DNA from: an uncultured Planctomycetaceae bacterium
GTDB lineage: Bacteria; Planctomycetota; Planctomycetia; Planctomycetales; Planctomycetaceae
Assembly: GCA_963815195.1 (NCBI GenBank)
Contig: CAWFGE010000023.1
Span: forward strand, 64,001 to 128,000
Length of the DNA stretch: 64,000 nucleotides
Reading direction: 5' to 3'
Shown: piece after piece, positions 16,073 through 26,878 of the stretch
How positions within the stretch are numbered: position 1 is the first letter of the stretch
How the letters are laid out: the number at the start of each line of letters is the position of its first letter
Made by a program: the position numbers and the translations under genes
The notes under the pieces: generated by a model
Seen by the model: the letters and a program-made list of their open reading frames with translations, nothing else
Database searches by the model: none
What the model was told of the DNA's origin: nothing

Positions 16073-17098
16073 TCAGCTGATATATGCCGTCGGCCACTGC
16101 CGGGAACGCAACCCTAATGCGAGATACTCTGGATTCGGACGCGCATCGATCACGTTCGGCAATGCGATATGTTCCGGAAGCCGCCCTCGGAATTCGTCCA
16201 AACCCATGTCAAGCTGCAAAACGACAAGCTGCGAAGCCTTGTCGGGATTGACCACAATCTTATAACTCGACTGCACCCCCAAAAGCCCATTGTCGTAGGC
16301 TCCGTGGTGCAACCGGCACAGAGCTAGGCCATTGGTGACATCGTCGGTGGATTGAGGGTCGGACACCGGCACGATATGCGCCGCATCGACAAGCTTCAAA
16401 GCCGTTCCGCAGACCGCACAGCAATACCGGTAGGCCCTGAGCACCTTCGGCCGGAACTGCGCTTCCCGATACGCCCGCATTGTTTGAACCAGGTCGTATC
16501 GGCGCGCGGCTTGGATTTCATCTTCCGACTCATCCAAAAAGTTCCGTTCGTCGTCGTAGGCGGCGTCGGCCAGATCGGCGACGGCGGATGAATCCTCTTC
16601 GGAATTATGCAGCGGCAATCCCCGCTCGACATACCACAGGAGAGAATCCGGCTGAACCGCGACGACCACTTCTCGGCCCATTTCCGTGGGACGGAGATAC
16701 GTTGCGATTCCAGCGTGGAAGGCGGTTTCAAGCGTTTGCCGATTGACTTGAAGACTGTTTGACCGGCTTCGAAACCTCGTGTGCCGGCGGGGATCCCAAA
16801 AGACATACACGCCATGCTCGGCATTCCAGCCGCCCAACAACGTCCGCACGCCGGGCTGAAGCGGAATGCCTCTCAAACCGGTGGCCTGAATCCGCATTTC
16901 ATTCTCGGGCCGATTGCGTCCGCCCGGCGTAACAGCCCACAGGAAGAGGATACAATCCGTGGTCCCTTCGGAAGTGATGACTCGCAATCGTGCCGGTCGT
17001 TCCGGATCCGTTTCGCGTTCCCGGATGACCGTGGCGCTGGATCGTTCCAACGTCGCGACAAACTCATCGACCAATCGAGAGAAAGGAATCCCCGGCAT
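16073..17098 (-). CDS. HNH endonuclease with an uncharacterised N-terminal domain (putative restriction nuclease)
   Basis: C-terminal FRPKVLRAY..CAVC...DAAHIVP...NGLALCRLHHGAYD HNH; 12 bp downstream of the MTase. Confidence 0.85.
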   Translation of the reverse strand: MPGIPFSRLVDEFVATLERSSATVIRERETDPERPARLRVITSEGTTDCILFLWAVTPGGRNRPENEMRIQATGLRGIPLQPGVRTLLGGWNAEHGVYVFWDPRRHTRFRSRSNSLQVNRQTLETAFHAGIATYLRPTEMGREVVVAVQPDSLLWYVERGLPLHNSEEDSSAVADLADAAYDDERNFLDESEDEIQAARRYDLVQTMRAYREAQFRPKVLRAYRYCCAVCGTALKLVDAAHIVPVSDPQSTDDVTNGLALCRLHHGAYDNGLLGVQSSYKIVVNPDKASQLVVLQLDMGLDEFRGRLPEHIALPNVIDARPNPEYLALGLRSRQWPTAYIS

Positions 17099-17110
17099 TC
17101 CATTGCACCT

Positions 17111-18118
17111 TTAGTCCTTGGAAGGTTTGCGTTTTCCCGTCGAATGGCCTTGTTTCGCGGACAACTCATTGCCCGGTGCATCATCGAAAAGCGGTCCTGT
17201 TTCAAACCGAATCATGGAGCCTGCGACGTAGTTTGGTTCGAGTTCGGAAGCGATCCAACGACGATTGGTTTGATTGCAAACCGATCCCGTTACGTTGCTG
17301 CCGGCAAATGGGTCGATCACCAAATCCCCCGGTTTCGTGAGAAAGTCGATAAAAAACTTAACCAGTTGTTCGGGATAGCGCGCGGGATGGGGCTTTATGC
17401 CGCGCTTCCTGCATTCCCGGAGATAGGTGCTGTTGGATTCCGTGTTCGCGATCTGAATCAAATTCGGGGGAATCGCACCGCCGTTATCCTTTTGAAACTT
17501 TGTCGAGATGTCATGTCCGGACGGACGCTTCTTGGCTTTATACCCGTTTTTGATGAGGTTCTTCATGCTGTCGCTATATGGCTGAAGCACGCGGCGGTTG
17601 TCAGCGTTTGGGTATTCCGTCTTGCCGAACCACCAAACCATATTGACCGCATCCTTAACACGAATCCGGCGGACCGTCACCCACTCGGCGGGCGTCGGCA
17701 AACGGGCGGGGTTATACCAATAAAATTCCTGCGCCAGATGAAATTCTTTCGCCAAACGAACGGCAAGCTCAAAGTGATAGATGCTTCGGACCGGCGCTCC
17801 GGGAACCCAAGCCCCGCCGATGTCGAGTACGAAGCTCCCCTCCGCCTTCAAGATGCGCTTGATTTCAAGACAAAAAGGCATGAACCATTCCAGATATTTA
17901 TCCAGAGGCTCGTTGCCGTACTCTTTCTTGCGCGTTAAGGCGAAAGGCGGGGACGTGATGACAAGATCGACGCTTTCACTCGGAAGCGTAGTCAGCAATT
18001 CCAGAGCGTCCATTTCAAACATCGCCCCCAAGGGAGTGCTATAGGCCGGGGTGAGATCTGAGATTCTATAGGTTTTGGTCCAACCTAGGTCTTTATCAAA
18101 TCCGCCGCGGGTGAGCAT
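17111..18118 (-). CDS. Beta-class site-specific DNA methyltransferase, N4-cytosine type, M.PvuII-like
   Basis: TSPPFALTRKKEYGN (motif IV SPPF) precedes DPFAGSN (motif I); RPSGHDI, DNGGAIPPNL and HPAR segments as in M.PvuII. Confidence 0.92.
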   Translation of the reverse strand: MLTRGGFDKDLGWTKTYRISDLTPAYSTPLGAMFEMDALELLTTLPSESVDLVITSPPFALTRKKEYGNEPLDKYLEWFMPFCLEIKRILKAEGSFVLDIGGAWVPGAPVRSIYHFELAVRLAKEFHLAQEFYWYNPARLPTPAEWVTVRRIRVKDAVNMVWWFGKTEYPNADNRRVLQPYSDSMKNLIKNGYKAKKRPSGHDISTKFQKDNGGAIPPNLIQIANTESNSTYLRECRKRGIKPHPARYPEQLVKFFIDFLTKPGDLVIDPFAGSNVTGSVCNQTNRRWIASELEPNYVAGSMIRFETGPLFDDAPGNELSAKQGHSTGKRKPSKD

Positions 18119-19172: not shown

Positions 19173-22100
19173 ATGAACGTTGATGAACTGCTGAGGATTC
19201 TTGGTGAGCGCCGTATCACCTTATGGGTGGATGGGAAGGCCTTGCACTTTCGCGGGGAAGCGGGTGTTCTCGATTCCGAGTTGCTGTCAGAACTACGCCG
19301 GAATAAAAAAGACCTCATCGCCAAACTGCTGGAAGAACAGAATTCGCCCCCAACCAAGTCAATTGAGGGCGAATACTGTTCGCTGTCGCTGGGGCAGCAG
19401 GCGTTGTATTACTTGCACGTCGCGCATCCGCAGAGTGCCGCTTACAACGTCGCCTCCGCCGCACGGATTTGTTCGCCAATCGAACTGGATGCGATGCGAG
19501 AATCCTTCCGGGCGCTGATTGCCCGGCACGACGCGTTGCGGACCACGTTCGAAATCCGCCACGGCCAGCCTTGGGCCCACGTCCATCCGCACGGCGAGTT
19601 GGATTTCGAGCAGCGAATGGTGCCCGAGGGGAATGAAGACGAACTCGAAGCCGAAATCCGCCGGGAGTATCAGCGGCCGTTCGATCTCGCACGCGGTCCG
19701 CTATTGCGGGTTCGGGTTTGGACCCAGTCGCCCGCGAAGCATGTGTTTTTGATGACGCTGCATCACATCATCTTTGATGCCTGGTCGTTGTGGCTGATTC
19801 AAGACGAATTCCGGCAACTCTATCGGCAGTACACGGGCGGTTCACCGGCGCTATTTCCCACATTGGACCAGCGGTATCAAACGTTTGCCGAGGACCAGAA
19901 CGCACTGCGAACCAGCGAACAAGGCGAGAAGCTGTGGACATATTGGCGGGAACGCCTGGCCGGGGAACTGAGCCCCACGGATTTGCGGTTCGATCGGCCG
20001 CGGCGGATCGGCGCGGAACTCCAAGGTGACACGCACCACTTTCGGATTTCCAAAGACCTCTCCTCCCGGCTCCGCGCGTTGGGCCGATCGCAAGGGGCAA
20101 CGCCGTTCGTGGTGCTGCTGGCGATTTTCAAAGTCTTACTGTCGCGGTACACGGGCCAGACGGATCAAATTGTGGGAACGAGCACTTGGGGGCGGTCGAA
20201 TCCCAAATACCGCCGGGTCGTGGGATATTTCGTCAACACCGTCCCGATTCGGAGTGACACTTCGGGCGATCCCACGTTTTCCCAATTTCTGGGGCACATT
20301 AAAACGCGGACATTGGAGGCCCTCGAGCATCAGGATTTTCCGTTTCCGCTGTTGGTGGACCGTTTGAATCCCCGCCGGGAATCCGGGCAGTCGCCGATCT
20401 GCAACGTGATGTTCGGCGTGCAAAAGCCCCAGCAGTTCAGCGAAGTCATGCGGTTGTTCGACGAAGACGCCGAGGCCATCGATTGGGGCGGTTTGGAGGT
20501 GCATCCTTTCCAACTGAACCAGCAAGAAGGTCAATTTGATCTGACGATGGACCTGTTTGAGACGACCGATTCGTTCTGGGGTGCGCTGAAATACGATCCG
20601 GAGCTTTTCGATCGCGAGACGGTGGAACGCATGGCCCGGCATTTTGTGCATTTGGCCGAGGGAATTGCCCAAGACCCCAGCCGGGCGATTACGGATTATG
20701 ATCTTTCGCCGGCGGAAGAACGGTTCGCCATCCAGGCGTTTTGCGAATCCGGTCCGCGAGTCGCGGTGTCCAACGAGCGAGTGCACCGCCTGTTCGAGCA
20801 GCAAGCCGCCCGCTCGCCCCGCCAAATCGCCCTCGTCTGTGGCCGGCTCGCATTGACGTACGAGGAAGTCAATCACCGGGCGAATCAGGCTGCCTGCTTG
20901 CTGCGCGAAGAAAGCGTAAAACAAGGCACGCTCGTCGCCTGCCGGTTGGAACGCGGTCTGGATTCGGCCGTGTGGCTGCTCGCGATCTGGAAGGCCGGCG
21001 GCGTGTATCTCCCCTTGGATGCCGCGGATCCCCACGCCCGCTGCGCACAAATCCTGGAAAACTCCCGAGCGGAACTGCTCATCACCCAATCATCGCTGGA
21101 CTGGAACAGCGGCCAAAATTCATCGGCCGGTTCGCATCGGACGCTGCTTTTGGACGAACTCTCGGACCGGCTCAGTCAATACGCAGGCGACGAATTTGAC
21201 GGAGGAAATCTCCCCGCGAAGTTTGGCGTATATCCTGCACACCTCCGGTTCCACCGGCACCCCGAAGGGGGTTTGCGTTTCGCATGCGGCCTTGGCGGAG
21301 CATCTGCTTTCGATCCGCGAGGTCTATCAGCTCAAACCGGAAGACCGGGTGCTGCACTTCCATAATTTTACGTTCGACCCCTCGCTGGAAGAGTTGCTCG
21401 CTCCCTGGAGCGTGGGAGCAACGGTGCTGCTCAGGGGCGAGGACCTGTGGACGCCGGACACGTTTTGGGAAATCGTGCAAGATCAAAACGTGACGGTCGT
21501 GGATTTGCCGCCCGCGTATTTTCGGCAGTGCAATGAAGTGCTGGAACGAACCGGTGGAATTCCGGCGTCGCTTCGGCTGTTGATTATCGGCGGGGATGTT
21601 TTTCCCGCCGAGATGCTGAGCACATGGAAGGATTCCGGCGTGCGGATTCTCAATGCTTACGGGCCGACCGAAGCGGTGATCACGGCCACCGTCTATGATG
21701 CGACAGAGCATGACGTCGCGGTTCACCCTCGTGCGCCCATCGGCCGGCCCAAGCGGGGCCTGCGGGCGTATGTGCTCGACTCGCGGGGCCGGCCTTCACC
21801 GGTGGGCGTGCCGGGCGAACTCTATCTCGCCGGCCCGATGCTCGCCGACGGCTATTGGCGGGATCCGGAATTGACAGCCCGAAAGTTTCCCGCAAATCCC
21901 TTTGCCGAGGGCGGAATGTACCGCACCGGCGATCGCGCGGCCTGGCGGGCGGATGGAATGTTGGAGTTCCTCGGCCGGCGGGATCGGCAATTCAAAATCC
22001 ACGGCTTCCGCGTAGAAACGGCAGAAGTTGAGAGTCTCTTGAACCGCTCTCCGGGCGTTCGGCAGTCGTGTGTTCTCCCGCGGCGCGATTCCCAAGACGA

Positions 22101-22551
22101 ACCGTATCTCGTGGCCTGGATCGAAAGTGATGCCGACGCGGCAACTTTCGAGGCGGACGTCCGAACCGCTCTCAAACAACGCCTGCCGCAGTACATGCTG
22201 CCCCGGTATTTCGTCGTGCTGCCGCGATTGCCGGTCAAGGCCTCCGGGAAGATTGATGAGCACGCCTTGCCGGAACCGGAATCCTCTCCGCGTGTGCAGG
22301 CCGAATACATTGCCCCGCAATCACCCTGCGAGAAAAAGCTCGCGCGAATTTGGTCGGAGGTTTTGGAAGTGGAGGCCGTCGGAATCCATGATAACTTTTT
22401 CGATCTCGGCGGCGGATCTTTGACCAGTCTGCGAGTTGTCGCCTTAGCCCGGGACGAAGGCTTACTCGTCCAAGGCCTGCCGATGGGGCCCGAACTCTTG
22501 TTTGAATATCCCACCATCGCCGAACTCGCCGCCCTCTTGGACCCGTACTGA
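19173..22551 (+). CDS. Single-module NRPS: TubC-type N-terminal docking domain - C - A - PCP, no TE (frameshift near 21187)
   Basis: Docking-like N-terminus; HHIIFDA; A-domain LAYILHTSGSTGTPKG, FDPS, NAYGPTE, GELYLAG, YRTGD, SGKID; PCP FFDLGGGSL. Two ORFs join by removing one base. Confidence 0.92.
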
Positions 22552-22574
22552 AATTTCCACGCTGAAGCACAATA

Positions 22575-22752
22575 AAATCCGAAATCCGAATCTCGAAATC
22601 CGAAACAAATCCAAATGTCCAAAACTCCAAGTCGCAAAACTTTGAGCGACAAAGCACGAAAATTGGGAACGAATCCGCACAGTTTCGTTTGAGACATTCG
22701 GATTTGAGATTTTGAATTTGTTTCGGATTTTCGGATTTCGATATTCGAATTT
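22575..22752. repeat. Long imperfect inverted repeat built from AAATCCG-type heptamers (MITE-like)
   Basis: aaatccgaaatccgaatctcgaaatccgaaacaaat ... atttgtttcggattttcggatttcgatattcgaattt. Confidence 0.8.
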
Positions 22753-22790: not shown

Positions 22791-24791
22791 ATGCGCCATT
22801 CCAAATCCTACATTGCCGGCCTCGGCGTCTATCTTCCTCCCAAACAGGTGAGCACCGAGGAAATCATCAAAGGCTGTCGGAATCCGGTGCGCATTCCTTT
22901 GGAGCGGCTGACCGGGATCCGCAGCCGGCACATGGCCGGCGAGGATGAGTTCGCCATTGATCTTGCGGCCAAAGCCGTCGAGGATTGCCTGGACCGCACG
23001 GACACCGCCCCCGAAGAGTTCGACATTTTGATCTGCTGCAACATCTCGCGCTATGACGGGCCGCGGCTCGTCTCTTATGAACCCTCGACCGCTGCCGTCT
23101 TGAAAAAGCGCTTCGGCCTGACGAATGCCGTGGCGATGGACCTTTCGAATGCCTGCGCCGGCCTGTGGACCGGAGTGTATCTGGTCGATGCTTTGATTCG
23201 GACCGGAGCCATCCGCCGGGGTCTGGTGGTCAGCGGGGAATACATCAGCTATCTGGCGACGACGGCCCAGAAGGAGATCGTCGACTATCTCGATCCGCAA
23301 ATCGCTTCGCTCACGCTGGGGGATGCGGGCGTGGCCGTCGAGTTGCGGTTGTCGCCGTCGCCCGCGATCGGGTTTCATGACATCGAGCTTTACACGCTCG
23401 CGCAATACTCCCGCGACTGCATCGCCAAGCCCAGCGATAAAACCCACGGCGGCGCCGCGATGTATACGGACGCCGTCAAAGTCTCCTCGGCCGTCGTGCC
23501 CCATGCGGCGAAGCACGCGGAACAAATCCTCCGCAAGAACGGGCAGTCGGTCGAGCAGTTTCAGCACATCATTCCGCACCAGACATCCCGATTGACGATG
23601 AACGATGCGATCAAATCGGTGGCCGGCGAATTTCCGATCGACCTCGAGCACCGGCTCATTAACAATCTGACCCTTCGCGGGAACACCGCGACGACCAGCC
23701 ATTTTCTCGCGCTCCGGGACACAATGCTCGAAGGGCGGATTCAAGCGGGCGATGAGGTGCTGTTCCTGATTTCGGGTTCGGGGCAGACCACCGGCACGGC
23801 ACTCTACACGTGCGACGATCTGCCCGATCGCCTTCGCTCGAAAACTCCCCGCACGGGCGAAACCGCTTCGCCCAGCGTGCCCGGGGAAACGTTGGCCGTT
23901 CCCCTGCAATTCGAGTCCTTCGCCCAGGTCGCCCGGAATGAAATCGAGCCGAATGACACGCTGACGATGCTGGAGCACGTCGCCGAAACCTGCCTCGAAA
24001 AATCCCGGTACGCCAAGGAAGAGATGGAAGTTTTGATTTCCGTGGGGGTTTATCGCAGCGAGTTTTTGACCGAGCCTGCCATCGCGGCACTCCTCGCAGG
24101 CGATCTCAAGATGAACGACCGCCGCGAGCCCGACGAGGCGCACAAAACTTTCGCGTTTGATCTCTTAAACGGGTCGCTGGGGTTTTTGAACGCGTGCTAT
24201 CTCGCCGCCGAGCTTTCGCGGGCCGGCGGTCTCGAACGGGCGATGGTCGTCGCCTCGGAAATCGAAAACAACAAAGAGGTCATGCCCGGCCATTTGCTGG
24301 GCTTGCGGGAGATGGCGTCGGCGGCGATTTTGCACGAATCCGACGACGGCGAAACCGGCTTTCTCGCCTTTTCGTTCGATCAGTATCCCGAACATGCCGA
24401 CGCCCTGAGGGTGACCGGCACCTGGAGCGAACAGGGAAAACCGCATCTCATCCGGTCGGCGAGCGATGACCGCTATCTTTGGTACGTGGAAGACATCGAG
24501 AAGAGCGTTTCCCGGTTCCTCTGCGAACAGGGCGTGAGCCGGGACGAAATCCGGTTTCTCATCCCGCCGCAGATTTCCCCTGCGTTCGTGCGGGCCGTCA
24601 GCCAGGAACTTGGCATGCCCCATGCGGAGACGATCGACGTGTCCTTCGACGGGCAGGACCTCGCAACGTCCTCAACGCCCGCCGCCATGCAGGCCGTTGT
24701 GGAAAACAATCTCGCCCAGAAAGGCGAACTGGGGCTGATCATCAACATCGCGTCCGGTGGCCAGGTCGGATGCGCGCTGTACCAGTTTTAG
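22791..24791 (+). CDS. Tandem two-domain 3-oxoacyl-ACP synthase III / OleA-like condensing enzyme
   Basis: Domain 1: LERLTGIRSR, EPST (E97), NACAG (C122), SGE, ASLTLGD, PHQ (H263), GNT. Domain 2: TEPA (E428), NGSLG (Cys to Ser), PPQ (His lost). Confidence 0.88.
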   Translation: MRHSKSYIAGLGVYLPPKQVSTEEIIKGCRNPVRIPLERLTGIRSRHMAGEDEFAIDLAAKAVEDCLDRTDTAPEEFDILICCNISRYDGPRLVSYEPSTAAVLKKRFGLTNAVAMDLSNACAGLWTGVYLVDALIRTGAIRRGLVVSGEYISYLATTAQKEIVDYLDPQIASLTLGDAGVAVELRLSPSPAIGFHDIELYTLAQYSRDCIAKPSDKTHGGAAMYTDAVKVSSAVVPHAAKHAEQILRKNGQSVEQFQHIIPHQTSRLTMNDAIKSVAGEFPIDLEHRLINNLTLRGNTATTSHFLALRDTMLEGRIQAGDEVLFLISGSGQTTGTALYTCDDLPDRLRSKTPRTGETASPSVPGETLAVPLQFESFAQVARNEIEPNDTLTMLEHVAETCLEKSRYAKEEMEVLISVGVYRSEFLTEPAIAALLAGDLKMNDRREPDEAHKTFAFDLLNGSLGFLNACYLAAELSRAGGLERAMVVASEIENNKEVMPGHLLGLREMASAAILHESDDGETGFLAFSFDQYPEHADALRVTGTWSEQGKPHLIRSASDDRYLWYVEDIEKSVSRFLCEQGVSRDEIRFLIPPQISPAFVRAVSQELGMPHAETIDVSFDGQDLATSSTPAAMQAVVENNLAQKGELGLIINIASGGQVGCALYQF

Positions 24792-24797
24792 CCGAAC

Positions 24798-25754
24798 TCA
24801 GTCGTGTCGGCCCACGAGAATTCGCAATTGCTCCTCCAGTTGGCGGGCGGTTCTCTTGGTATACCGGCGCGGACTGATGATCTTTTTCAATCGGTCCGTC
24901 AAGAGGATCGGCGTCCCTTGGGCGAGCCGGAGCTGCGCAAACGCCCCCTCCCTGGGCAAGCCGAGAAAGAACTTGTCCGCATCGACATCCAGCACCCGGT
25001 CCTCTTGATCGTTTGGCGGCAAGGATTGAATCGGCTGATCGACCAATTCGTAGTCGGGATCGAACAGCCAAACCAACGTATGCAGCTCGCCCGTCTTGGG
25101 GGAAACGAGGATCGCATACCGGGTCATCATTTTTTTGTGTTGGCCGTCGATCAGCAGGATGGCATCGCTGTCAAAGACCAGCATTGTTGGCGTGCGGACA
25201 ATCTGCAGAAAGCCGGTTCGAAAATCCGTCTCGCATTGCGAAAGCACCTGGCGGGCGATGATGTCGAGATCGGCCCCAAGTTTTTTCTGAGTGGCGGAAG
25301 TTATGATTGTGTTCTTCCCGTCGATCTCCGTTCCAATGCCGATCGCCACTTGCTCCAGAGAGTATTCTTCGATTGCTCCCGTCCGATGCCGCTCCACGTC
25401 GGCCAGGCAGTTGACGGTATACACCGCGGCATAATACAGGACGGATCGGGGGACCTCTTTCACATTGCCGCTGCCAATTCGCGGATGGGCCGCATACACC
25501 AGATGAGACCAGCCTTTGGGAGGGGTCTTGCCGACGACCGTTCCGGGGGGAATCCAATCCAAAGGCTTTTCCTCAAGAACCACGCGTCCCGCTTCCGGAG
25601 GCGGGGAAACCGGAGGTTTCTTTGGGGGAGGCGGTTCCGCGACACGGCCCCAGAAGAACCACGACGCCAACAAGACCGGCAATAACGCCGCGAGGATCGT
25701 CAGCGGTCGAAAGGCGCGGGCACGTTTTTTCGTCTCGAACACAGGTTCAGGCAT
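24798..25754 (-). CDS. Hypothetical protein with N-terminal membrane anchor and Pro-rich linker
   Basis: One hydrophobic helix (LTILAALLPVLLASWFFW), PPPPKKPP linker, globular C-terminus. Confidence 0.7.
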   Translation of the reverse strand: MPEPVFETKKRARAFRPLTILAALLPVLLASWFFWGRVAEPPPPKKPPVSPPPEAGRVVLEEKPLDWIPPGTVVGKTPPKGWSHLVYAAHPRIGSGNVKEVPRSVLYYAAVYTVNCLADVERHRTGAIEEYSLEQVAIGIGTEIDGKNTIITSATQKKLGADLDIIARQVLSQCETDFRTGFLQIVRTPTMLVFDSDAILLIDGQHKKMMTRYAILVSPKTGELHTLVWLFDPDYELVDQPIQSLPPNDQEDRVLDVDADKFFLGLPREGAFAQLRLAQGTPILLTDRLKKIISPRRYTKRTARQLEEQLRILVGRHD

Positions 25755-25873: not shown

Positions 25874-26878
25874 TTACAGCCATTGATGCTCAATATACCA
25901 GTCATATGTCTGACGTAGTTGCGTTTCGAGAGTCGCTTTGGAAGCGGCCTCGAGTTCCCGAGCGGCTCGTTCCGCCCGGCAGACCCAGGAACCCGCCCGG
26001 GCTTCCCGGATTTTGTCGAGGTTCAAAAATGTGGGCCGGCCCGTGATGCGTCCCCAGGCTTCCCACACGCCGGCCGCCATCCAGCATAGCGCCGACGGCA
26101 AAACCACGTTTCGCACCGATGCTCTCCCGAAGAACGGTCCCGACAACTCCGCCAGCTTGGCGAATGTCACCGGCTGAGGATGGGCCAGATAATAGATGCC
26201 TTGGTTCATAGGGTCGTCGCACGTTTTGATGGGTTTTCCCCTCTTCATGGCCGCCAGCATGCCGTCGATTAAATCGTGAACTTCCAAGAATGAGTAACGA
26301 GGCCTCACAGAGATCGCACAGACGTTAAGACCGCGTTTTATCGATTGAAAGAACAACAACAAATTACGATCCCCCGGACCGAAGACGCAAGGCGGCCGAA
26401 GAATGGTGATCGGCATCTGTGGAGAAATCTCTCTCAAGTAATCCTCCGCTTCCAGCTTCGTCCGTCCATAGTAGGAAACCGGCCGGCAGACATCCTGTTC
26501 CGTGACGCCTCCCTCCGAACTCGGCCCGGCTGCCGCGAGCGACGAGACATGGACGAGCTTTGGAGGGTTCGGCAGGTCGAGAACCGCATCCGCAAGGGTT
26601 TTCACTCCCCCGACATTGACCGACCGATAATACTTCAACGAAAAAGCCCCCGCGGCGGCCGCGAGATGGAAAATGCCATCCACCCCCCGGACGGCGGATT
26701 TCATCGCAACCGGATCGCGAATGTCGCCTTCCACGACTTCAACCGACTTGACGATCGAGTCAGGCAGACGCGAGGCACGTCGGACCAAGGCGACGGTTTC
26801 AATGCCCAGGTCCAACAGGGCAGGAACCAGCGATTTTCCGATGAATCCGGAAGCCCCGGTGACGAGCACGCGATTCAT
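25874..26878 (-). CDS. Extended SDR, NAD-dependent epimerase/dehydratase (3-beta-HSD/OleD-like superfamily)
   Basis: VTGASGFIG, FHLAA, HVSSLAA, YGRTK (YxxxK), RPPCVFGPGD. Confidence 0.88.
   Translation of the reverse strand: MNRVLVTGASGFIGKSLVPALLDLGIETVALVRRASRLPDSIVKSVEVVEGDIRDPVAMKSAVRGVDGIFHLAAAAGAFSLKYYRSVNVGGVKTLADAVLDLPNPPKLVHVSSLAAAGPSSEGGVTEQDVCRPVSYYGRTKLEAEDYLREISPQMPITILRPPCVFGPGDRNLLLFFQSIKRGLNVCAISVRPRYSFLEVHDLIDGMLAAMKRGKPIKTCDDPMNQGIYYLAHPQPVTFAKLAELSGPFFGRASVRNVVLPSALCWMAAGVWEAWGRITGRPTFLNLDKIREARAGSWVCRAERAARELEAASKATLETQLRQTYDWYIEHQWL

Follow-up and report, generated by a model that had tools for sequence, protein, structure and literature searches.

A gene in a 64,000-nt stretch of DNA from an uncultured Planctomycetaceae bacterium (the window: positions 64,001 to 128,000 of contig CAWFGE010000023.1, assembly GCA_963815195.1) encodes two β-ketoacyl-ACP synthase III (KAS-III; ACP, acyl carrier protein) folds in a single chain of 666 amino acids, hereafter the didomain. 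The didomain very likely has the architecture of an LstA/LstB-type (LstAB) pair with a single active site. By analogy, we further propose that this LstAB/NltAB-type heterodimer in one chain probably serves as the terminal, carbon-carbon bond-forming release unit of an assembly line composed of a fatty acyl-AMP ligase (FAAL), a polyketide synthase (PKS) and a nonribosomal peptide synthetase (NRPS). The proposal builds on the observed residues, their conservation across the family, the ancestry of the two halves, a predicted pseudo-dimer and a position directly after a peptidyl carrier protein (PCP) that lacks a thioesterase, and borrows its chemistry from OleA and LstAB.

Domain organization and active-site residues

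Pfam assigned one ACP_syn_III and two ACP_syn_III_C stretches to the protein. The features of the gene, in window positions, are as follows.

22791..24791, plus strand: fused LstA/LstB-type KAS-III didomain, 666 amino acids (open reading frame, Pfam, AlphaFold2)
22803..23825, plus strand: domain 1, LstA/NltA-like, predicted catalytic (residues, conservation, identity to split A subunits)
23079-23081, plus strand: E97 (EPST), domain 1
23154-23156, plus strand: C122 (NAC), domain 1
23577-23579, plus strand: H263 (PHQ), domain 1
23682-23684, plus strand: N298 (GNT), domain 1
23778-23780, plus strand: S330 (GSG loop), domain 1
23826..23897, plus strand: flexible inter-domain linker, about residues 346-369 (AlphaFold2 predicted local distance difference test, pLDDT, 57-69 over residues 351-370)
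23898..24788, plus strand: domain 2, LstB/NltB-like, shortened, catalytic triad absent (residues, alignments, profile comparison)
24072-24074, plus strand: E428 (TEPA), domain 2
24174-24176, plus strand: S462 (NGS), domain 2, at the Cys position
24567-24569, plus strand: P593 (PPQ), domain 2, at the His position
24657-24659, plus strand: D623, domain 2, at the triad Asn position

A first-pass annotation, made from the sequence alone, had read the protein as a pseudo-heterodimer on the strength of E97, C122 and H263 in domain 1 and E428, S462 and P593 in domain 2, and all six residues were found at those places in the 666-amino-acid frame. Beyond these, domain 1 has N298 as the Asn of a full Cys-His-Asn triad, where domain 2 has Asp623. 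Domain 2 comprises 297 amino acids and carries its Glu at domain position 59, versus position 93 in domain 1. With half 1 as the BLASTP query and half 2 as the subject, the halves proved homologous (E 2e-9), E97 pairing with E428 and C122 with S462. The 12 best Protein Data Bank (PDB) matches of a 102-residue stretch around E428 were all chains of Xanthomonas campestris OleA (E 0.001-0.03), in the alignment of which E428 falls on E117 and S462 on C143.

One active site is conserved across the family

A full-length search recovered 1077 proteins among 8000 scored candidates. In the best 120 of these 1077, E428 was Glu in 119/120, C122 was present in all 118 rows with a residue at that position, H263 and N298 were found in 120/120 and S330 was invariant, while position 462 varied among S, A, P, E and G. 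Searched with a profile, 50%-cluster representatives yielded 701 matches at E ≤1e-30, and the best 150 of these 701 provided 152 aligned rows, in which gaps were excluded from the counts. Here E428 was Glu in all 144 rows, E97 was Glu in 128 and Asp in 5 of 133, and C122 (134/134), H263 (149/149) and N298 (150/150) did not vary. Domain 2 had Cys at 462 in 0/144 rows and His at 593 in 0/137, and the Ser of the GSG loop was kept in 146/149 rows in domain 1 (S330) versus 61/137 at its twin in domain 2 (residue 655). Judged by these residues, one site is kept throughout the family and the other is dead, the dead half retaining its Glu. The first-pass annotation had cast E428 as a general base acting from domain 2, a role that depended on its conservation among homologues, and the residue proved to be conserved in both samples.

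The two halves share ancestry with LstA/NltA- and LstB/NltB-type subunits

A profile of domain 2 retrieved mostly fragments of fused proteins, together with two stand-alone NltB-type proteins of Nocardia (P0380 and P0381), whose E57 aligns with E428. The available portions of two reports describe E57 of NltB (10.1101/856955) and E60 of LstB (PMC12141560) as essential for condensation, the latter also giving C128, H271 and N305 as the corresponding residues of LstA. As a query over 251 genomes of the order of G001, P0380 found a match in 12. We studied six regions with split A and B pairs. One resembles nltABCD, with the pair next to OleC- and OleD-like genes (L098), and two resemble lstABCDE, with the pair, OleC/OleD-like genes and an NRPS (L099 and L100). 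The other three, from Mycobacteriales (L093, L101 and L102), hold split LstA/LstB-type pairs without adjoining OleC/OleD-like genes and form a third sub-lineage on the tree.

The split A subunits have the same Glu, Cys, His and Asn set as domain 1, to which they are 34-37% identical, and the split B subunits have the Glu without the triad, the B proxies being 19-23% identical to domain 2. The split pairs of L098, L099 and L100 matched the domain profiles at E 1e-82 to 1e-90 (domain 1) and 1e-28 to 1e-49 (domain 2), scores far exceeding those of the genome's own OleA and FabH on both profiles. In quick maximum-likelihood trees of 48 rows, evaluated by SH-aLRT and the approximately unbiased (AU) test, domain 1 joined the split A subunits (SH-aLRT 95) and domain 2 joined the split B subunits (99-100). 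An internal gene duplication as the source of the two halves was rejected, with a p-AU of 0.0002 when the fused halves were held together. Since the halves group separately with split A and B subunits and duplication is rejected, the didomain is best read as a fused LstAB-type pair. The fusion was found in 79 of the 80 loci fetched for the context analysis below; the remaining one, L010, is broken by an apparent frameshift.

The likeness to LstA/LstB of the lipstatin pathway (Streptomyces toxytricini) extends to the triad, with C122/H263/N298 corresponding to LstA C128/H271/N305, and domain 2, like LstB and NltB, is a shortened, triad-free B half with a Glu (E428 versus LstB E60 and NltB E57). 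However, LstA/LstB and NltA/NltB (nocardiolactone, Nocardia) are each two polypeptides, whereas the didomain is one and forms a separate lineage; and LstAB and NltAB act at the start of their pathways on acyl-CoAs, whereas the didomain sits behind the PCP that ends FAAL-PKS-NRPS lines. Our literature search, outside whose reach lay the original LstAB paper (JACS 2019), turned up no account of LstAB fused into one protein, nor of an NRPS that ends in a pair of KAS-III domains. In their accessible parts, PMC7064751 and 10.1101/2025.10.26.684697 mention LstAB solely as a heterodimer, while PMC13192835 and PMC11356792 deal with other matters; the accessible part of a JBC review cites the JACS 2019 paper beside a remark on natural fusion chimeras, so the fusion may be noted there. 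LstAB and NltAB are described, in the excerpts available from PMC12141560 and 10.1101/856955, as lacking a crystal structure and as poorly soluble or unstable, and the didomain could offer a single-chain, possibly more stable stand-in.

The halves are predicted to pack as a KAS-III pseudo-dimer

AlphaFold2, run on a 113-row alignment, modelled the whole chain with a pLDDT of 93 and a predicted template modelling score (pTM) of 0.94, and Foldseek returned FabH-type chains as the top matches of each half (TM 0.8-0.9 per domain). Folded as separate chains, domain 1 and domain 2 gave a complex score of 0.94, compared with 0.00 for the best of three controls; the mark set for this score is reached by 116 of 157 solved complexes versus 2 of 215 mismatched pairs. 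The runs of the two-chain model shared at least 96% of contacts, with a partner pLDDT of at least 91. Because KAS-III dimers have already been solved, passing this mark shows likeness more than proof. The predicted interface brings domain 2 residues 424-430, which include E428, to domain 1 residues 114-121, 124 and 329-333, and pairs E97 with residue 541. The models thus support packing of the halves as a canonical KAS-III pseudo-dimer with E428 within the interface.

In PqsBC, PqsB is a non-catalytic partner that is not known to have a catalytic Glu. Domain 2 might likewise be a scaffold only, the base being E97 of a second molecule brought in through a domain 1-domain 1 dimer, and E97 is in fact Glu or Asp in all 133 rows. 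We consider this extremely unlikely, given that domain 2 fills the dimer face of domain 1 in both models (the whole chain and the two halves folded as separate chains) and that Asp is tolerated at E97, never at E428. Moreover, split A subunits keep the E97-equivalent Glu and still need the Glu of B, according to the portions available of 10.1101/856955 and PMC12141560. PqsB was not among the PDB matches listed for the domain 2 profile, and no direct PqsB alignment was made. The first-pass proposal of a natural LstA-like/LstB-like fusion with one active site is supported by phylogeny, by the asymmetry of conservation and by the canonical KAS-III dimer packing of the models.

The didomain mostly lies at the end of assembly lines, usually without a thioesterase

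For genomic context we searched GTDB genomes, in which at least 561 relatives were found among 600 candidate stretches, and combined the best 80 loci with the window to give 81. The 80 loci span Planctomycetota, Bacteroidota, Chloroflexota, Actinomycetota, Lentisphaeria, Acidobacteriota and Nitrospira, and by these searches the family is widespread, in at least six phyla. The didomain was fused behind an adenylation (A) domain in 38 loci, had an A domain just upstream in 20 and was fused to a FAAL-acyl carrier protein (ACP) unit in 1; 22 loci had no adjacent A domain, and 15 of these were from Bacteroidota. An NRPS end of the A-PCP type, usually thioesterase-free, was therefore fused to or directly before the didomain in 58/81 loci. 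When five of the 15 Bacteroidota loci, picked for their long contigs, were extended, all five contained a FAAL, a luciferase-like monooxygenase, one PKS module, a condensation (C)-A-PCP protein that stops at the PCP, and OleB/C/D-like genes.

Among 48 N-terminally extended representatives, a small carrier profile found a carrier domain within 260 residues upstream of the didomain in 47, and the didomain was C-terminal in 47. Architectures ran from FAAL-ACP-C-A-PCP-didomain (P0128 and P0140) to single-chain FAAL-PKS-NRPS-didomain proteins. Together, these counts give strong genomic support to the first-pass guess that one of the acyl donors may be PCP-bound. A short-chain dehydrogenase/reductase (SDR) was encoded near the didomain in 16/81 loci.

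The conserved Bacteroidota cluster (L112-L116 with L017, L031, L046 and L080) combines the FAAL, luciferase-like monooxygenase, PKS, Gly-type NRPS and fused KAS-III pair with a cytochrome P450, a phosphopantetheinyl transferase, OleB/C/D-like genes, a sulfotransferase, a desaturase and a 484-amino-acid protein of unknown kind. In a Nitrospira locus (L078:2694-4349), the neighbours flanking the didomain are an OleD-like gene and a fusion of a lipoyl/2-oxoacid-dehydrogenase acyltransferase with an ACP, and they suggest a different acyl donor.

In the window itself, the didomain gene follows an NRPS module.

19173..22551, plus strand: NRPS module TubC_N-C-A-PCP, no thioesterase, printed as two open reading frames (Pfam; one extra base near 21191)

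This is the only match to a condensation-domain NRPS in the genome. The upstream part of the line lies on contig C10 (310343-323239, L104), which encodes FAAL-ACP-KS-DH-MT-ER-KR-ACP and KS-DH-ACP (KS, ketosynthase; DH, dehydratase; MT, methyltransferase; ER, enoylreductase; KR, ketoreductase). In intact Pirellulales clusters a PKS precedes the NRPS, and this FAAL-PKS is its best match in the genome. The C10 stretch also carries frameshifts. A-domain codes, read with our own motif script on GrsA numbering, differed by lineage, with codes that we take to be Ser-like in Ktedonobacteria and Actinomycetota and Gly-like in Bacteroidota. The window A domain has the code DPEDIGAITK, which agrees at 8/10 positions with DVEDIGAIEK, the code paired with Arg for ApnA of anabaenopeptin in Table 2 of PMC5311044, and by this reading the domain would be Arg-like.

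Proposed mechanism and its rivals

OleA uses the Glu of the partner subunit to deprotonate the chain bound to its Cys, and this chain then attacks a second thioester (available sections of PMC8180931). Similarly, in the didomain a fatty acyl-CoA would acylate C122, and E428, reaching across from domain 2, would remove the alpha proton of the bound chain while H263 and N298 stabilize the enolate. The enolate would attack the thioester of an N-acyl-aminoacyl chain on the NRPS PCP, which here would be the PKS-extended fatty acid from contig C10 in amide linkage with Arg or some other basic residue, and hydrolysis would release a 2-alkyl-3-oxo-4-(acylamino) acid. This acid could lose CO2 to give an alpha-amido ketone or be reduced by the neighbouring SDR; in Bacteroidota, OleD-, OleC- and OleB-like enzymes could convert it to a hydroxy acid, a beta-lactone or an olefin. 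A single active site would allow two different donors to be told apart.

LstE probably attaches the amino acid to the lipid late in the lipstatin pathway. The didomain might follow the same logic and condense an acyl-CoA with another acyl-CoA or with a PKS acyl-ACP, the NRPS C domain attaching the amino acid later, so that the PCP-bound chain would never be a KAS-III substrate. The lst-like operons L099 and L100 do pair A and B subunits with an A-PCP NRPS of about 1070 amino acids, FAAL-ACP and the didomain are directly fused in L065, the Lentisphaeria members have no carrier line nearby and OleB/C/D-like genes accompany the Bacteroidota clusters. However, the NRPSs linked to the didomain contain an ordinary Condensation domain with a strong match (E 1e-100), that of the window also a TubC_N docking domain, whereas the N-terminal parts of the L099 and L100 NRPSs had no Condensation match at 1e-5, and in L062, P0136 and P0128 ACP-C-A-PCP-didomain stand in line on single polypeptides. 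We therefore regard this order of events as rather unlikely.

The KS domain that ends the fungal NRPS TAS1 is a precedent for tetramic acid closure, and a Dieckmann-type release, in which C122 takes a beta-ketoacyl-aminoacyl chain and E428 deprotonates its methylene, would give a 3-acyl-tetramic acid with no second donor. The last PKS module in the lineage of the window, KS-DH-ACP without KR, could leave the required beta-keto group, as could P0136, which ends in KS-AT-MT-ACP (AT, acyltransferase). Yet L041 and L062, whose lines end in KR or DH-ER-KR modules, and P0128 and P0140, which have no PKS, keep the same residues, and the closest characterized kin perform intermolecular condensation, making this release quite improbable.

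KAS-III-like enzymes can also transfer acyl groups, as CerJ and ChlB6 do. C122 might accordingly catalyse C-O or C-N acyl transfer or plain hydrolytic offloading, with E428 activating water or the acceptor, and the didomain does occupy the usual place of a thioesterase. OleA, too, hydrolyses acyl donors (PMC8180931, available sections). The complete Cys-His-Asn oxyanion set is nevertheless invariant, and the SDR or OleD/C/B-like genes linked to the didomain point to a beta-keto acid as the product, so that we hold transfer or hydrolysis to be very improbable.

Several observations weigh against the condensing release that we favour. A stand-alone thioesterase was encoded nearby in 9/81 loci, no NRPS or PKS was found within the fetched flank in 7/81 (five from Lentisphaeria, L076 and L078), and, at E 1e-30, the PKS had no counterpart in G319; some members must therefore use other donors. 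The line is split over two contigs in this genome, and both C10-type PKS modules, in G000 and G256 alike (L104 and L119), retain no more of the AT than its first third and lack GHSxG, so that an AT must act in trans. The stand-ins for the split subunits in our comparisons were proteins of nlt/lst-like operons and named Nocardia proteins, not LstA and LstB themselves, and C122 and H263 are absent from the listed residues of the predicted interface. Finally, E97 is almost as conserved as E428, and split LstA/NltA-type subunits retain its equivalent; conservation by itself therefore does not prove the role of E428. Because the protein is a single chain, both the trans-acting Glu and the order of donors could be tested directly with one-site mutants.

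If the condensing release holds, the didomain may define an undescribed class of NRPS release, although we put this forward more tentatively: an N-acyl amino acid and a second fatty chain would be joined head-to-head, and two-tailed amino-lipids would form with no pyridoxal phosphate enzyme, the amino acid being set by the A domain (Arg-, Gly- or Ser-like by lineage). The Arg-like domain of the window would then lead to a cationic two-tailed lipid or an arginyl ketone. In the presumably Gly-like Bacteroidota lines, OleD/C/B-like enzymes would lead to amido beta-lactones or allylic amides, and the lines of Ktedonobacteria and Actinomycetota, whose codes we assume to be Ser-like, would arrive by decarboxylation and SDR reduction at a dihydroceramide-type skeleton, independently of serine palmitoyltransferase. 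Such a class would add a carbon-carbon bond-forming release mode to NRPS chemistry and would point to a so far uncharacterized family of two-tailed amino-lipids or beta-lactones made by Planctomycetota, Bacteroidota, Chloroflexota, Actinomycetota, Acidobacteriota and others.

Comparison with other condensing enzymes

OleA of X. campestris shares with the didomain the Glu at the E117 position, the Cys/His/Asn set and the EP motif, but is a symmetric homodimer with two sites, whereas the didomain is predicted to have one. Against the OleA model NF006720 (cut-off 285), the didomain scored 168.6 bits as a whole and 117 for domain 1, compared with 398 for the genome's own OleA (L107). FabH has the fold and triad in common with the didomain, with an aromatic residue where the didomain has Glu, and the didomain failed both FabH cut-offs (167 versus 292 for TIGR00747 and 192 versus 249 for NF006829), which the genome's own FabH (L106) passes. 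The KS domain of TAS1 and SalC of the salinosporamide pathway release a PCP-bound N-acyl amino acid, as we propose for the didomain; both are type I KS folds that perform an intramolecular cyclization, in contrast to the active/dead KAS-III pair described here. NocG (nocuolin A) and PpyS carry out a Glu-dependent nondecarboxylative Claisen condensation like that proposed for the didomain, and NocG is a KAS-III enzyme condensing carrier-bound, FAAL-loaded thioesters (PMC9486936, available part). As described, however, NocG and PpyS each consist of a single domain that carries the four residues together on one chain, and neither uses an aminoacyl donor.

The true OleA gene and the OleB-, OleC- and OleD-like genes of this genome are scattered on contigs C13 and C22 of G000 (L107-L110) and do not form an operon. 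A role for the didomain as the OleA serving these scattered oleB/C/D-like genes was rejected, the genome having a true OleA.

The assembly line and its neighbours in this genome

The didomain was present in 3/61 related genomes; within the genus, G000 and G256 hold both the didomain and the PKS, and G254 and G255 hold neither. L117 and L118 keep a full AT in PKS module 1, and comparison of L104/L119 with L117/L118 indicates, by domain content, a shift from cis-AT to trans-AT within one cluster family.

The NRPS frameshift near 21191 looks like an assembly error. Run X1, which may be of the source sample, yielded one short-read contig (depth 2.6; weak alone) that lacks the base at 21191. Without the base a single frame of 1125 amino acids opens with HHxxxD, the A core motifs and GGGSL, and homologues run through the site unbroken. 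With the frame opened by this contig and continuous in homologues, a pseudogene is unlikely.

The other features around the didomain gene are as follows.

22574..22752, strand not assigned: AT-rich imperfect inverted-repeat element between the NRPS and KAS-III genes, outside the pathway (arms of 24 nt, 92% complementary)
24798..25754, minus strand: 318-amino-acid protein outside known families, with a hydrophobic stretch at the N terminus (Pfam, homologue search)
25874..26878, minus strand: extended SDR of the epimerase/3beta-hydroxysteroid dehydrogenase fold, candidate beta-keto reductase, not an OleD orthologue (Pfam, models, genome matches)

OleC/OleD-type genes do not adjoin the didomain in the window. 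When the SDRs flanking the intact clusters L117 and L118 are compared with the genome, the window SDR is their best match (42-43%); its identification as OleD was unsupported, at 72-75 bits on OleD models versus 416 for a true OleD-like neighbour. Relatives of the 318-amino-acid protein lie near the didomain in 6/81 loci, the window counted, all of them from Planctomycetota, and a search of the ESM Atlas gave no usable match for it. A paralogue is encoded on contig C13, adjoining a PfaA-like PKS region. The inverted-repeat element had 129 BLAST matches in about 93 places of the genome and looks like a repeat of the REP/MITE type. Just upstream of the NRPS, an N6_N4_Mtase DNA methylase is followed by an MTaX1-HNH endonuclease (16073-18118, minus strand), likely a restriction-modification pair.

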